A stretch of 64,000 nt of DNA, from the sequence record NC_018855.1; one strand, 5' to 3'. The stretch comes from Escherichia phage HX01. The translations under genes and the position numbers were made by a program. The number at the start of each line of letters is the position of its first letter. Within the stretch, counting starts at the first letter, position 1. A model generated the notes under the pieces. That model was not told where the DNA came from, made no database searches, and worked only from the letters and a program-made list of their open reading frames with translations. This document shows positions 1,314-46,994 of this stretch, in pieces.

Positions 1314-1808
1314 ATGAATATCAATACTATGGCTACTTACATCCTGAAAGACGAAAAACAAATCAACTGGTACGGTGCTTCAGTGCGAGCTTATGAAAAG
1401 TTTTGTGAAATTTTAGGTGCCACTCAAGGTAATAGTTTCACTATTGTTAACTTCATCAAACAAGCTGAAGGCCCTTGGTTATTCTTAGAAATTAAAAATT
1501 CACACGGTACAATTTCTACTACCGCCCTTCCAAGCACTGACTTTGAACTGTTGATTGAAGAAGCACCTGTTAAAGATGGTCTCCACTTTGATATGGACAT
1601 CGCTTGTATGTACGGTACTCTGATTAAGCCTATTGAGCCTACTGATTTGTTGTGTAAAGCTGTTTCAATTCGACGTCCGTTCGCAGGACCAGTGAGTGGA
1701 TGGGTAACTGATCAGTGGATTGAAGACGGTGTTGAACTTCTGAACGTAGTTCATGCGGGTGATTTTAGTGTAGTTCCACGTAGTGCAGTAGTTAATATCC
1801 TTAATTAA
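1314..1808 (+). CDS. Hypothetical protein, paralog A of a tandem three-gene family (motB-region)
   Basis: 164 aa; C-terminal motif GWVTDQWIEDGVELLNVVHAGDFSVVP shared with the two downstream ORFs; own promoter upstream. Confidence 0.6.
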   Translation: MNINTMATYILKDEKQINWYGASVRAYEKFCEILGATQGNSFTIVNFIKQAEGPWLFLEIKNSHGTISTTALPSTDFELLIEEAPVKDGLHFDMDIACMYGTLIKPIEPTDLLCKAVSIRRPFAGPVSGWVTDQWIEDGVELLNVVHAGDFSVVPRSAVVNILN

Positions 1809-2825: not shown

Positions 2826-3350
2826 ATGTTAGTTTACCGCGTAGAACGTAGTTTTTGTACTCAACGTGAATCATTACCAGGAATTGCTATTGAAGACGGT
2901 AAAGCCGTCAGAATTTGGGAAACCTCTTGGAATAAAGAACCTCGCTCACCATACGGTTGGTCAGGCACCGACAACTCTGAAGAAACATGGGAGTTCCTTG
3001 ATAAACATGGAATACTCTCAGGTAACTTCTACCATCATGGCGACAACTATAATGTCCCTAATCGTCCTACAGTAAATGAAGACAAACTCCTTGAACAAAA
3101 TATCTTAAGATACTATAGAATTGAGCACACATTTGAATTGAGTGAAGATTGGGCTCAAGGGTTCTATTTTGGATTTGAAAGTGTTGACGCGGTTTATGCA
3201 TGGTTTGATGACCAGGTGGATGTTGAACTCCTGAAAGCTAAAGGATACTACATCGCCGTCTATGAAGCACCTGATTTCATCCTCGGAAGTTGTCAATTAA
3301 TGTTTAGACGTTCATTGGCAGAACAAGTTGATTTTATTTTGCTAAAATGA
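2826..3350 (+). CDS. Hypothetical early protein
   Basis: 174 aa ORF with strong RBS GAGGAGA 6 nt upstream and early promoter at 2771-2799. Confidence 0.55.
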   Translation: MLVYRVERSFCTQRESLPGIAIEDGKAVRIWETSWNKEPRSPYGWSGTDNSEETWEFLDKHGILSGNFYHHGDNYNVPNRPTVNEDKLLEQNILRYYRIEHTFELSEDWAQGFYFGFESVDAVYAWFDDQVDVELLKAKGYYIAVYEAPDFILGSCQLMFRRSLAEQVDFILLK

Positions 3351-4702: not shown

Positions 4703-5386
4703 ATGAAATACATAACATACTTAACAATATACACAGGCGATAAGTTGCCACCGTTTTATATAGGGTCTACTTATCTTGATAAACATACAAACAATTACTA
4801 TCATGGTACGGTAAAGTCGAAAAAATATAAACAAATTTATGATAAAGAGATAAAAGATAATCCTCATTTATTTGATTCATGTATTATTGGCGAATTTGAT
4901 ACACGGGAAGAAGCGACGTTTTGTGAGTTGTATTACCAGAAATTGCATAATGTGGTTAAATCTGAAAAATTTTTCAACATGTCTTATGCCACAGTTGATG
5001 GGTGCTTTGGTATGGATGTTTCAAAAGAGTTAAATCCATTTTATGGACATAATCACTCTGAAGAAACTATTGAACTACAATCCGTTATCAAGAAAGGCGA
5101 TCTTAATCCGATGTATGGAATTAAGCGCCCGGAACATTCTAAAGCAATGAGTGGCAAAAACAATCCATTTTATAATAAGAAACATACAAAGGAAGCGCTT
5201 ATAAAGTGTGGGCTTAAAAATCGTAAAAGTCCTGTATGGGAATATGAATCTGCTTTATATAAATTATGGTTAGAATTGGATAAACCAAAGGTTGGGAAAT
5301 TTGCTAAAGAAAGCATTAAACGTGGATTTCCGGAAGGTTCATACAAAAATATAGTCATGCAATTTGAGAGAAAATCTAATGATTGA
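4703..5386 (+). mobile_element. Free-standing GIY-YIG homing endonuclease (Seg-like) with NUMOD3-type repeats
   Basis: 227 aa; N-terminal YITYLTIYTGD...FYIGST (GIY-YIG); repeated NPFYG/NPMYG...HS(E/K) modules; 8-nt overlap with gene 39 start. Confidence 0.8.
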
Positions 5387-18903: not shown

Positions 18904-19563
18904 TTATTTGGCCCTTCCTAGTATTCGGACCGCTTGGTTGCATATAGCCGCTAAGCGATCCTCCTCAAGTATATTATTCCCCTTATACCAATACATCGTC
19001 ACAGTTCCAGCATAGATGTTATCCAAATTAAAGTATGGACAACTATACATATAAGAAAGTTCGGCAGTCTTAGATTTTGTAGGCAAAAATGCAAATTCTG
19101 ATTTAGATGAGAAATGACGGCCACTTAAATGAATTATATATTCATTGGCCGTTTTATCCACCGGGAATCCACCAAGGGACTTTTCAGAAATTGTGCTAGG
19201 TAGTTTGCCTTCATAAGCTATAAGGTCGACAAAATAATTTAAGTTTTTAGGTCTGAAAGAATACACAGCACTAAAATCTGCACCAGATGAGATATGAACT
19301 ATTTGCAGTTGTTCTAGAGCCGCAGATTCAAAACGTAAAGCTCGTTCTTTTTGGATTATTTCAGTATAAGTATCATACTTAGCTCTTACGTAATAATCCA
19401 GCAAAATACTTCCTTTGTACCATATTAGTGCCATTAGGAACAAAAGAATAATTACCGCTACTCGTGACATTAAAACCTTTCCAGTAGCGTTATCTTTGAA
19501 AATACGATCTAGCAACCCAAATAGAATATCACTAGGTGAAAATGACACTTTTGGTGTTGCCAT
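18904..19563 (-). CDS. t: Holin T
   Basis: 219 aa; MATPKVSFSPSDILFGLLDRIFKDNATGKVL... matches T4 holin (218 aa). Confidence 0.92.
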   Translation of the reverse strand: MATPKVSFSPSDILFGLLDRIFKDNATGKVLMSRVAVIILLFLMALIWYKGSILLDYYVRAKYDTYTEIIQKERALRFESAALEQLQIVHISSGADFSAVYSFRPKNLNYFVDLIAYEGKLPSTISEKSLGGFPVDKTANEYIIHLSGRHFSSKSEFAFLPTKSKTAELSYMYSCPYFNLDNIYAGTVTMYWYKGNNILEEDRLAAICNQAVRILGRAK

Positions 19564-19572
19564 AATACCTCC

Positions 19573-20124
19573 TTACTTAAAGATATTTATAATCGCTTTG
19601 AAAATAGATTTGTTTTCAAGGTCAGGGAATTTAGGGAATTCGCCGCCAAGATGTTCATGTTTTTCTAAAAGGGCAAAGAATTTTTTGAGCTCTTTAAATT
19701 TTCGTTTTTCTTCTCTATTAGCAACCTCTGCGTCAATAAGAGAACTTAAAACACCGAATAATTTATAGAGTTCATGAATTTTCTTGTCACGTTGAACTAC
19801 GCGTTTATATGCTTCATCTTCCTTCCACCCGTCACCGGACCAAATGTCAAATTCACCAGGTTCTTCTGTAGTAACATTTTGAAGAGTACCTGGAGTGTCA
19901 ATAACAATTTTTTGCTTATCATAAGTCCATACTGTTTTTCCACGATGGTCTTCGACATATACCCATTCTTGTTCGCGTTCATCAAATACAACAGCATAGC
20001 CTTCTTTAGGGTCTAAAGGTTTTTTTGGTGTCGAATGAGCCGGAAATCCTACGCCTTTTAATGGTTTATAATTTTCTTCTTTGTAAAATTCTTTAGTGTC
20101 AAAATAATAGTGATAGAGTTTCAT
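19573..20124 (-). CDS. 38: gp38, tail fibre assembly chaperone (T4-type, 183 aa)
   Basis: 183 aa; MKLYHYYFDTKEFYKEENYKP... as in T4 gp38. Confidence 0.9.
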   Translation of the reverse strand: MKLYHYYFDTKEFYKEENYKPLKGVGFPAHSTPKKPLDPKEGYAVVFDEREQEWVYVEDHRGKTVWTYDKQKIVIDTPGTLQNVTTEEPGEFDIWSGDGWKEDEAYKRVVQRDKKIHELYKLFGVLSSLIDAEVANREEKRKFKELKKFFALLEKHEHLGGEFPKFPDLENKSIFKAIINIFK

Positions 20125-39276: not shown

Positions 39277-40410
<1,134 letters not shown>

Positions 40411-40412
40411 TG

Positions 40413-40442
40413 GTTTACAAACACCAAGGAAGGTGTTACTAT
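40413..40442 (+). promoter_or_regulatory. Early-type promoter for alc (GTTTAC-18-TACTAT)
   Basis: Spacer ACACC...GGTGT inverted repeat; lies in the apparent N-terminal extension of the alc ORF. Confidence 0.55.
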
Positions 40443-40472
40443 GGCTTTTATCAACATCACGAGGAGAAAATT

Positions 40473-40973
40473 ATGAATATGCAATTGATTACTAACGATA
40501 TGGTTGTGGCAGCATTCGGTGATTCTACAGATGGAATCCGGGTCTTTAAGAAAGGACGTCCAGTTGGTTATCTTACTGACCTACGTGTTACACTGGCCAA
40601 AAATCTTAAAAAGAAGTTAAAGCAAAAGGAATATTCAACACGTTACACCGAAGAGAAACGCGAAGCGATGCCGGAAGCAGTTAATGCCATGGTAGAATTT
40701 CTTCAAAATAATTTGACTAAATATGACGCTAATGTGTTCATTAATATTAGTCAACCAAACGTACATATCGCAGGTATAAAATTCTACATTATTTGCGACC
40801 CTCTTACCGACAAATTCAACCGTCTCGGAATCTCAAGTCCGTATCATACAGCAGAAGAGTTGTGTGTATTGTTTGAATCGTACAAAATCCAGTGTGATGG
40901 TCCGAAAACCGTTCTTATCAATGGATTATCCCGAGATGAAATCATTGAGATTATTAAAACATGCTTAAAGTAA
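40473..40973 (+). CDS. alc: Alc (host transcription elongation inhibitor)
   Basis: ORF track 40410-40973; first 21 codons contain a promoter, so start moved to ATG 40473 (RBS GAGGAG); about 166 aa as T4 Alc. Confidence 0.8.
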   Translation: MNMQLITNDMVVAAFGDSTDGIRVFKKGRPVGYLTDLRVTLAKNLKKKLKQKEYSTRYTEEKREAMPEAVNAMVEFLQNNLTKYDANVFINISQPNVHIAGIKFYIICDPLTDKFNRLGISSPYHTAEELCVLFESYKIQCDGPKTVLINGLSRDEIIEIIKTCLK

Positions 40974-41317
40974 ATCCGATTTATGCTATAGTAGCAGCTT
41001 TTGCTCTAGTTTCTACGGCAACAATAGTTGTCTTAAACAACAAAGTTGATTCGTTGAATACTGAATTAGCTTCTGTCAAAGAGACTGCTAAAAACAATGC
41101 TAAAGTATTAGACGACTTCAAGGTTCAGTATCAGTCAATCGAAGAAATGACTTATAAGAACCGTGTTTTAGTTGACCAACTTAAGGCCGAAAATGAAAAG
41201 CTCCGTAAGGATTCGAAGAAGAAGAACGTGGTGGCAAGTAAACCAGGATTGGTCGAAAAACAAATCAACAAGTCCTTCGATTCCTTTGCAGAAGACCTCA
41301 GGAAGCTCTCAGAATGA
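40961..41317 (+). CDS. pseT.3: i-spanin (Rz-like inner-membrane spanin subunit)
   Basis: 118 aa; N-terminal TM segment then coiled-coil periplasmic domain; T4 i-spanin PseT.3 lies here. Confidence 0.7.
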   Translation: MLKVNPIYAIVAAFALVSTATIVVLNNKVDSLNTELASVKETAKNNAKVLDDFKVQYQSIEEMTYKNRVLVDQLKAENEKLRKDSKKKNVVASKPGLVEKQINKSFDSFAEDLRKLSE

Positions 41318-41604
41318 TTAAATTAACCGCAGTTGTATTATCTATTAGTATTTTGGCTGGATGTGCCCAGGATGTGCCCTTAAGCCCTAAAGAAACTTTA
41401 CATCCGCCATGGCCTGAATCTATTGTTGAATATAACCAGAAATGGCAAGTAAAGGTTATTGATGGTAATCCGTGGGTTGGAATGCCGTTTGAAGACTCTC
41501 AAGAATTTCGTATCTGGTTAAACGATGTAAAAAGATATGTACATGACCAGAAGACTATGATATGTTATTATCGTAGTGGTTTAAAAGAGGAAAAATGCCA
41601 ATGA
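41314..41604 (+). CDS. pseT.2: o-spanin (Rz1-like outer-membrane lipoprotein)
   Basis: 96 aa; signal peptide with lipobox ILAGC; follows i-spanin with overlapping start. Confidence 0.7.
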   Translation: MIKLTAVVLSISILAGCAQDVPLSPKETLHPPWPESIVEYNQKWQVKVIDGNPWVGMPFEDSQEFRIWLNDVKRYVHDQKTMICYYRSGLKEEKCQ

Positions 41605-41819
41605 CTAAAGAACAACATGAATACATTAAAGGGCTTATCTATGAATCTGAAATGGCGGCTATGATTTATGGGCGCCAGATTCAACGATTAGAATCTTTGC
41701 CTCCGACTAATGACCGATTGTTAGTTCAGTCTCGTGCTAATCTGAAAAATGAATATCAGAATAAGTGGGCAGTAGCGACTAAAGCTCTTCACGAGTATAT
41801 TGAATCTTTAGTAAAATAG
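41595..41819 (+). CDS. Hypothetical protein
   Basis: 74 aa, overlapping start with upstream gene. Confidence 0.5.
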   Translation: MPMTKEQHEYIKGLIYESEMAAMIYGRQIQRLESLPPTNDRLLVQSRANLKNEYQNKWAVATKALHEYIESLVK

Positions 41820-41848
41820 TTTACAAACTCTCAGGAGCAGAGTATAAT
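41819..41848 (+). promoter_or_regulatory. Early-type promoter (GTTTAC-18-TATAAT)
   Basis: -10 flanked by AGGAGCA...TGCTCCT. Confidence 0.6.
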
Positions 41849-41876: not shown

Positions 41877-42175
41877 ATGAAAACATTACTAGAGAATTAC
41901 ATCAAACGGTCTGATGAGTATATTGATATCTGTCGTGGAATGTCACTCGGCAATTATGACAAAGATGCAGCAAAGGCACTAGATGAAGCAGGTAAAGCTC
42001 TTCGTAAAGCTGCTAAAGAAAAAGGGTTGGATTTGCAACAACTCAAAAGTCATATGATTAAATTTATTTCTTCAAACGTTAGAAGTACGTCAATTAATAA
42101 AAACGTTGCTGAAATTAATAAAGACCGGCGCGAGCATAACATTCGTATTCTTGAAATTTTCTTAGGAATAAAATA

Positions 42176-42176
<1 letters not shown>
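41877..42176 (+). CDS. Hypothetical protein
   Basis: 99 aa; promoter at 41819-41848, RBS GAGGAAA. Confidence 0.5.
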
Positions 42177-43262
<1,086 letters not shown>

Positions 43263-43263
<1 letters not shown>

Positions 43264-44359: not shown

Positions 44360-45352
44360 ATGTTACCTGTCATCAGAAAACTTATTTCTCCAAAAGAACT
44401 GGCTGAGATTATTCCTTTGTCGGAAGCTTACGCATCACAAGTGGCTTCTCATCGCGAACAAGTTAATTCGATTATGAATGGTGAAGACCCACGCAAACTT
44501 ATTGTTGTAGGTCCTTGTTCAATTCATGACCCTATTGCTGCTGTTGAATACGGCAAACGTCTGGCTGAACTTCAAACTCGTCTTCCTAATGTTCTGTTAG
44601 TGATGCGCGTTTATTTTGAAAAGCCTCGAACTACCGTAGGTTGGAAAGGTCTTGTAAATGATCCATATCTTGACGGAAGTTTTGATATGAACCACGGTCT
44701 TATAGTTGCACGAACATTGTGTCGTAAACTTCTACGTATGGGACTTCCATTAGCAACTGAAGTATTAGACCCATTCACGATTAAGTATCTTTCTGGTATT
44801 TTCTCATGGGTTGCTATTGGCGCCCGTACGACTGAAAGTCAGACACATCGTGAAATTGCTTCAGGTCTACCGATGTGCGTAGGCTTCAAGAACGCAACCA
44901 ATGGTTCTATTAAAGTAGCTACAGACGCGATGTATAGTGCCGCCTGGCCTCATCGGTATATGGGTATGGACGTCGATGGTACTGTAGGCATTGTTGAAGC
45001 TGAAGGTAATCAGAATACGCATATCGTATTGCGTGGCGGGACTAACGGCCCGAACTATCATTCTTCTGATATTCAAGAAGCTTCTAACAAAGCAAGTGCA
45101 GTAGGTCTGAATCATTATGTAATGGTTGACTGTAGCCATGCAAACGCTGATGGGTATTATAGCAATCAAATTGGTATTGGTAAAAATTTAGCAGCTAATG
45201 ATTTGGTCAAAGGAATTATGATAGAATCATTCCTACATGAAGGAAATCAAAAAATTTCTGATAATATGTCCTATGGCGTTTCCGTTACCGATGCGTGCAT
45301 CGGTTGGGAACAAACTAAAGAGCTGTTAACTTATATTAATAAGGTTCAATAA
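44360..45352 (+). CDS. 3-deoxy-D-arabino-heptulosonate-7-phosphate (DAHP) synthase homolog, class I AroG/F/H-like
   Basis: 330 aa; motifs LIVVGPCSIHD, KPRTTVGWKGL, GARTTESQTHRE, VGFKNATNG, DCSHAN, IMIESFLHEGNQ, SVTDACIGWE align with E. coli AroG active-site segments; RBS AAGGA. Confidence 0.85.
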   Translation: MLPVIRKLISPKELAEIIPLSEAYASQVASHREQVNSIMNGEDPRKLIVVGPCSIHDPIAAVEYGKRLAELQTRLPNVLLVMRVYFEKPRTTVGWKGLVNDPYLDGSFDMNHGLIVARTLCRKLLRMGLPLATEVLDPFTIKYLSGIFSWVAIGARTTESQTHREIASGLPMCVGFKNATNGSIKVATDAMYSAAWPHRYMGMDVDGTVGIVEAEGNQNTHIVLRGGTNGPNYHSSDIQEASNKASAVGLNHYVMVDCSHANADGYYSNQIGIGKNLAANDLVKGIMIESFLHEGNQKISDNMSYGVSVTDACIGWEQTKELLTYINKVQ

Positions 45353-46621: not shown

Positions 46622-46629
46622 TATAAATA
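46622..46629 (+). promoter_or_regulatory. Possible late promoter (TATAAATA) between 31 and rIII
   Basis: TATAAATA on + strand 117 nt upstream of rIII. Confidence 0.3.
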
Positions 46630-46745: not shown

Positions 46746-46994
46746 ATGATTAAACAATTACAACACGCTCTTGAACTGCAACGAAACGCATGGAATAACG
46801 GTCACGAAAACTACGGTGCGTCAATTGATGTTGAAGCCGAAGCACTGGAAATCCTGCGATATTTCAAACATCTGAATCCTGCTCAGGCTACTCTGGCTTC
46901 TGAACTGGAAGCTAAAGATGAATTGAAATATGCTAAGCCTCTGGCTTCTGCAGCACGCAAAGCAGTTCGTCATTTTGTTATTACCCTGAAGTAA
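46746..46994 (+). CDS. rIII: rIII lysis inhibition accessory protein
   Basis: 82 aa (T4 rIII 82 aa); position downstream of gene 31. Confidence 0.75.
   Translation: MIKQLQHALELQRNAWNNGHENYGASIDVEAEALEILRYFKHLNPAQATLASELEAKDELKYAKPLASAARKAVRHFVITLK

Follow-up and report, generated by a model that had tools for sequence, protein, structure and literature searches.

A very probable two-component spanin, orthologous to T4 pseT.3/pseT.2, encoded beside alc in Escherichia phage HX01

The 64,000-nucleotide (nt) stretch of Escherichia phage HX01 analysed here (from NC_018855.1; hereafter the window) contains, far from its holin gene t, two small genes that very probably encode the inner-membrane and outer-membrane components (i-spanin and o-spanin) of a spanin, the complex that disrupts the host outer membrane as infection ends. 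Two plus-strand open reading frames (ORFs) adjoin at this locus in both the ORF list and the sequence: the i-spanin gene (40961-41317), encoding a protein of 118 amino acids (aa) that starts MLKVNPIYAIVAAFALVSTATIVVLNNKVDSLNTE, and the o-spanin gene (41314-41604), encoding a 96-aa precursor that starts MIKLTAVVLSISILAGCAQDVPLSPKE (its N-terminal opening also given as MIKLTAVVLSISILAGC) and is predicted to yield a mature lipoprotein of ~80 aa. The stop codon of the first and the start codon of the second share the tetranucleotide ATGA at 41314-41317. The original prediction had called the two ORFs overlapping, and they are indeed adjacent and share these letters, but an overlap of merely 4 nt places them in the 'separated' rather than the 'overlapped' class of spanin genes; by the criteria of Kongari et al. 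an overlap of even 8 bp still counts as separated (PMC6139136). Across this interval the opposite (minus) strand offers nothing but short ORFs (31-46 aa).

A 2-kb stretch that includes the locus, used as a query, has 99.0% DNA identity with Shigella phage phi25-307 (Straboviridae, Tevenvirinae, Mosigvirus) and matches 240 records of T4-like phages, and the window is collinear with phi25-307, in reverse orientation, over 61.4 of its 64 kb (96%); by this measure the window is T4-like phage DNA of the genus Mosigvirus. In the RefSeq record of phi25-307 (NC_055734) the two genes correspond to gp183 and gp184, each named 'Rz-like spanin', while in many primary GenBank records of close relatives the pair still carries the label 'hypothetical protein'. 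The o-spanin is 100% identical to its phi25-307 counterpart. Compared directly with T4 by BLASTP, the 118-aa protein has 48% identity to PseT.3 over 108 aa (E 2e-33) and the 96-aa protein 68% identity to PseT.2 over 99 aa (E 7e-50); RefSeq likewise labels T4 pseT.3 and pseT.2 'Rz-like spanin'. Both proteins have full-length matches among PHROG families annotated 'Rz-like spanin, lysis' (phrog_739, E 8.6e-35, for the i-spanin; phrog_812, E 3.1e-43, for the o-spanin). A Pfam scan returned only sub-threshold coiled-coil or domain of unknown function (DUF) matches for the i-spanin and none for the o-spanin, the lambda Rz and Rz1 families were absent from the Pfam matches of either protein at E values up to 0.01, and an NCBIfam scan of both proteins gave no match.

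The i-spanin has a single strongly hydrophobic segment at residues 7-25 (IYAIVAAFALVSTATIVVL; 40979-41035, plus strand), with a Kyte-Doolittle mean of 2.43 over 19 residues. Lys3 stands N-terminal of this putative transmembrane segment, which fits an N-in, C-out (type II) topology. The protein contains zero cysteines, and residues 7-94 are free of Pro and Gly. A single-sequence AlphaFold2 model, with a predicted local distance difference test score (pLDDT) of 84.9, places one helix at residues 6-87, which includes the hydrophobic segment, and another at 96-117, the two being separated by a break at 88-95. In a crude heptad test, hydrophobic periodicity at positions a and d is highest at residues 25-62 (0.70 versus 0.48 +/- 0.10 for shuffled sequences), a score reached by 2.35% of 2000 shuffles. 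The membrane segment and coiled coil that the original prediction had attributed to this ORF are thus both supported, by hydropathy, heptad periodicity and the modelled helix. T4 PseT.3 is described as a helix 1, a very short linker and a helix 2, with coiled coil in helix 1 only (PMC6139136), and the HX01 protein matches this plan.

An alignment of i-spanins from 7 phages, including members of Mosigvirus, Tequatrovirus, Muldoonvirus, Chrysonvirus and Slopekvirus, places the strongest conservation at the junction of linker and second helix, where the motif KPGLVEKQIN is found (41240-41269, plus strand). K94, P95, L97, E99, I102, N103 and S105 are invariant in 7/7 sequences, and almost no variation is seen across the whole run K-P-G-L-V-E-K-Q-I-N-x-S, which lies at the start of the second helix. 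The membrane segment and first helix vary freely in the same alignment, the segment staying hydrophobic throughout. Because the KPGLVEKQIN region is the most conserved part of the i-spanin, we consider it the best candidate for contact with the o-spanin.

The o-spanin opens with a positive charge at K3, followed by the hydrophobic core LTAVVLSISIL and a lipobox, L14-A15-G16-C17 (41353-41364, plus strand), that matches a PROSITE-style pattern at the end of the signal peptide. The string ILAGC, given as the lipobox in the original prediction, is present, although the lipobox proper is LAGC. Read across the predicted processing site, the signal is MIKLTAVVLSISILAG/C-A-Q-D, such that the mature protein would begin at a lipid-modified Cys17; the residue at +2 is Ala and there is no Asp, that is, no inner-membrane retention signal, which predicts sorting to the outer membrane. 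The pattern is selective in this DNA, matching 2/498 ATG-started ORFs of >=50 aa in six frames of the window. The other match (30596-30402, minus strand) is attributed to chance, being without a hydrophobic core and antisense to the local gene strand.

Beyond the lipobox the o-spanin has two cysteines, Cys84 (41563-41565) and Cys95 (41596-41598), forming a C-terminal pair (41563-41598, plus strand) that aligns with Cys87 and Cys98 of T4 PseT.2. L14, G16, C17, C84 and C95 are invariant in 7/7 homologues. In T4, the substitutions C87S and C98S each abolish lysis, and PseT.2 forms a disulfide-linked dimer only with PseT.3 present, PseT.3 itself forming no disulfide dimer (PMC6139136). We also note that the T4 reference (NC_000866) carries an ambiguous codon at 135174-135176 (X, 'Ile or Thr'), at PseT.2 residue 86 and so beside the essential Cys87; the corresponding residue is Ile in the HX01 protein.

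Homologues of the o-spanin are found in 1318 phage records, those sampled being large T4-like genomes with hosts that include Escherichia, Klebsiella, Shigella, Enterobacter, Aeromonas, Yersinia and others. We compared the loci of T4, Citrobacter phage Ursula, Klebsiella phage K65_evo8, Serratia phage PS2, Aeromonas phage avDM12-TAAL and Klebsiella phage KP15 (Slopekvirus). At all six the pair lies on one strand with the i-spanin first, after rnlA (and alc where present) and before pseT, and the junction overlaps are of 4-10 nt each. In T4 the order is rnlA, alc, pseT.3, pseT.2, pseT.1, pseT, with the spanin genes at 135.1-135.8 kb. The pseT.1 gene, coupled through a shared ATGA to the end of the o-spanin gene, was considered as a third spanin component and rejected: its product is without a signal or membrane segment, and unrelated genes stand at this place in the Citrobacter, Klebsiella and Aeromonas phages.

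Set beside the T4 pair, the HX01 genes encode proteins of nearly equal length (118 and 96 aa, against 117 and 99 aa for PseT.3 and PseT.2), and the two phages have in common the 4-nt ATGA junction, the place between alc and pseT.1/pseT and the separation from t and e, as well as the layout of membrane segment, helix 1, linker and helix 2, the type of lipobox, and cysteines that are absent from the i-spanin and conserved as a C-terminal pair in the o-spanin. They differ in that the membrane segment and first helix of the HX01 i-spanin have diverged in sequence, that the linker region of the HX01 o-spanin is 3 residues shorter, and that the interval from pseT.1 to pseT holds, in HX01 but not in T4, a promoter and two additional small ORFs. 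The gp183/gp184 pair of phi25-307 consists of essentially the same genes in the same order, with no notable difference in the region. The likeness to lambda Rz/Rz1 is one of job and design, an inner-membrane coiled-coil protein plus an outer-membrane lipoprotein that together fuse the membranes once the wall is gone, and the T4 pair does substitute for Rz/Rz1 in lambda, pseT.3/pseT.2 complementing an Rz(am)Rz1(am) mutant (PMC6139136, Kongari 2018, Fig. 8b). However, there is no detectable sequence relationship between the lambda and HX01 proteins. Rz1 is embedded in Rz, whereas the HX01 genes stand side by side, and no lipobox is present in the single ORF (41172-41321, with a TTG start) that the +1 frame of the i-spanin gene contains. 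The HX01 o-spanin is larger than Rz1, a proline-rich, disordered protein, and is predicted to be structured; the disulfide pattern also differs, with 0 + 2 cysteines here (both essential in T4), and the HX01 spanin genes belong to no lysis cassette and have no late promoter ahead of them. The pair is thus a functional analogue of Rz/Rz1 and not a member of their sequence families. A unimolecular spanin of the T1 gp11 type resembles the HX01 o-spanin in carrying a signal for an outer-membrane lipoprotein and in performing the last step of lysis, but gp11 does so as one protein, with a membrane segment at its C-terminus, whereas HX01 has two proteins and its lipoprotein has no second hydrophobic segment. 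We rule this type out, given that the o-spanin C-terminus (KTMICYYRSGLKEEKCQ) is charged and polar and that its top 19-residue hydropathy window is the signal peptide itself (residues 1-19, mean 1.74).

The pair thus has every feature of the PseT.3/PseT.2 family that can be read from sequence, in the 'separated' architecture, and with very high confidence we assign it as the two-component spanin of a T4-like (Mosigvirus) phage, orthologous to T4 pseT.3/pseT.2. The HX01 proteins appear to keep all the features reported for the T4 pair by Kongari et al., and we found nothing that contradicts a spanin function, which would be carried over from the T4 orthologues. The reading does have its limits. 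Identity of the i-spanin to PseT.3 is only 48%, with a membrane segment that varies in sequence; neither Pfam nor NCBIfam has a usable model of T4-type spanins, and the assignment was made through PHROGs and direct comparison with T4. The membrane-segment and lipobox calls come from hydropathy and pattern matching, the single-sequence AlphaFold2 model of the o-spanin is unreliable (pLDDT 49), and the probable early expression of the genes, discussed below, is read from promoter motifs alone. The localisation, complex formation, membrane fusion and timing of expression proposed for the HX01 pair are to be understood in this light, as what its resemblance to T4 would imply. Neither the pair nor its distance from the holin gene is new: the genes are annotated in RefSeq, and the arrangement has been published for T4. 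T4 PseT.3/PseT.2 had reportedly been described as a spanin of separated architecture by Summer et al. (2007, J Mol Biol 373:1098).

On the plus strand the gene order in the window is rnlA-alc-i-spanin-o-spanin-pseT.1-(2 ORFs)-pseT. Upstream of the pair lie rnlA (RNA ligase 1, 39286-40410) and alc (40473-40973, plus strand; Pfam ALC, E 1.2e-41), a host transcription inhibitor and not a lysis gene, the end of which overlaps the start of the i-spanin gene by 13 nt. Downstream are pseT.1 (41601-41819) and, after two small ORFs, the gene for the polynucleotide kinase PseT (42364-43263). The start of alc at 40473 is where residue 1 of T4 Alc aligns and is the one used in RefSeq for phi25-307. The longest ORF would place it at 40410, overlapping the stop codon of rnlA and adding 21 codons across a promoter-like spacer (40410-40472); this start is probably not used and its extra codons probably not translated.

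The 62-nt spacer between rnlA and alc contains an early-type, sigma-70-like site with an extended -10 element (40413-40442, plus strand; TTTACA-17-TACTAT, with TG before the second hexamer), which reads GTTTACA-N-GTGTTACTAT. GTTTACA and the GTG-TA-T positions are invariant in the rnlA-alc spacers of T4, Ursula, K65_evo8 and PS2. The core of the site is kept by T4-like phages from five host genera, and the site probably drives the alc-pseT.3-pseT.2-pseT.1 block. A copy of TATAAATA, the late-promoter motif of T4, precedes t by 21 nt (19584-19591, minus strand) and another lies upstream of rIII (46622-46629, plus strand), with none on the plus strand between 31487 and 46622. The placement of the spanin genes in an early pseT-alc region, as first proposed, agrees with these motifs. 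A literature search found no time-resolved expression data for pseT.3/pseT.2, so that 'early' here derives from promoter motifs. A second strong sigma-70-like site follows pseT.1 (41820-41848; TTTACA-17-TATAAT, 11/12, the best of the region), its -10 hexamer sitting in the loop of an inverted repeat AGGAGCA...TGCTCCT. Beyond it are the two plus-strand ORFs of unknown function that separate pseT.1 from pseT, one of 99 aa (41877-42176, PHROG 2364) and one of 63 aa (42176-42367, PHROG 8683).

The holin gene t lies at 18907-19563 (minus strand), its product having 75% identity to T4 T over 219 aa (Pfam Phage_holin_T, E 4.2e-92). It is 21.4 kb from the spanin genes, close to the 22 kb first estimated. 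The window was also said to contain no endolysin gene, and every search made agrees: T4 e and rI gave no tblastn match below E 0.7 in the window, no endolysin is annotated in phi25-307 over the stretch corresponding to the 64-kb window, and the ORFs in the three largest gaps in collinearity with phi25-307 encode a MotB-related protein, a protein of unknown function and an HNH homing endonuclease. One ORF of 164 aa (1314-1808), the length of T4 lysozyme, was considered as an endolysin and rejected, being assigned to PHROG 2333 / MotB-related with no similarity to e. Lysis functions are therefore dispersed as in T4, the original prediction having the right comparison: the gene order matches that of T4, where the pair is described as separated and as lying away from t and e (PMC6139136). 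A second lysis-related gene of the window that the first reading did not mention is rIII, a lysis-inhibition accessory gene (46746-46994, plus strand; 93% identity to T4 RIII), 5.1 kb downstream of the spanin genes.

Some other features of the window deserve brief mention. The 164-aa ORF at 1314-1808 (plus strand), with its MotB-like C-terminus, adjoins two MotB-like paralogues and is absent from the collinearity with phi25-307. A 174-aa ORF of unknown function (2826-3350, plus strand; PHROG 1106) also lies in a stretch not collinear with that phage. The HNH/homing endonuclease ORF (4703-5386, plus strand; PHROG 10820, E 2.4e-44) fills a 730-bp stretch without a phi25-307 counterpart and adjoins the topoisomerase large-subunit gene; it is probably a mobile insertion. 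Between pseT and cd, where T4 has only small cd.x ORFs, HX01 carries a 330-aa DAHP synthase gene (44360-45352, plus strand; Pfam DAHP_synth_1, E 1.5e-74), annotated aroF in phi25-307, which represents a phage-carried gene of the aromatic amino-acid pathway (an auxiliary metabolic gene).

The transcriptional setting invites a reading in which the genes encode a true spanin pair that also has a second role in the envelope, early and before lysis, such as envelope remodelling, resistance to lysis from without, or control of superinfection or lysis inhibition, which would explain co-transcription with alc. In one form of this reading, bridging of inner and outer membranes would stabilise the cell during lysis inhibition, and the placement of the genes would be no accident of genome history. 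It draws on the conserved early-type promoter and tight translational coupling of alc, pseT.3, pseT.2 and pseT.1, on the lack of a late-promoter motif upstream of the spanin genes, on a placement kept in at least six phage groups, and on the proximity of rIII. Yet nothing observed calls for a second function; a model in which the complexes stay inactive for as long as the wall is intact (PMC6139136) accounts adequately for early synthesis, and the conserved position may merely reflect the general collinearity of T4-like genomes. On balance we think a second role very improbable. Less credible still, to the point of being negligible, is that the 118-aa protein has a cleavable signal peptide where we place its membrane anchor, releasing a soluble periplasmic coiled-coil protein instead of an i-spanin, for while MLKVNP-IYAIVAAFALV-STA does resemble the charged, hydrophobic and cleavage regions of such a peptide, with possible cleavage at S-T-A / T after residue 20, the hydrophobic run goes on past this site (TIVVL), its 19 residues sufficing for a membrane span, a hydrophobic stretch of comparable length recurs in homologues with no conserved A-x-A type site, the AlphaFold2 helix is continuous through the site, and T4 PseT.3 works as an i-spanin (PMC6139136).

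Taking the pair as a spanin acting in lysis, we propose that it would work as modelled for spanins generally. In that model, i- and o-spanin join via their periplasmic C-terminal parts, threaded through the peptidoglycan mesh (PMC6139136, citing Berry 2012, Rajaure 2015), and the complexes stay inactive while the wall stands; once holin and endolysin have removed it, they diffuse, change conformation and fuse the membranes (PMC6139136). In HX01, the N-terminal membrane segment would anchor the i-spanin in the inner membrane, with a long helical, partly coiled-coil rod extending into the periplasm, and the o-spanin would be exported and receive its lipid at Cys17. Binding of the two proteins through their C-terminal parts would then give a complex that spans the periplasm through the peptidoglycan mesh and that the intact wall holds in place, harmless. 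Expression of the spanin genes from an early-type promoter together with alc may be tolerated because the complexes are inert before the wall is degraded. Late in infection, holin t, encoded 21 kb off behind a late promoter, would open the inner membrane, and endolysin e, encoded outside the window, would degrade the wall. The freed complexes would cluster and change shape, stabilised by o-spanin dimers disulfide-linked via Cys84 and Cys95, and would fuse the inner and outer membranes, such that the last barrier to phage release would be gone.

Beyond correct annotation the value of this finding is small, the spanin pair being a textbook part of T4-type lysis with experimentally characterised orthologues in T4. 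It does document a conserved early-type promoter upstream of alc as the probable driver of the spanin genes. Features diagnostic of the pair that stay invariant between distant T4-like genera are the lipobox, the C-terminal cysteine pair of the o-spanin and the KPGLVEKQIN motif, and propagating the spanin annotation to the 'hypothetical protein' records of relatives would be worthwhile.

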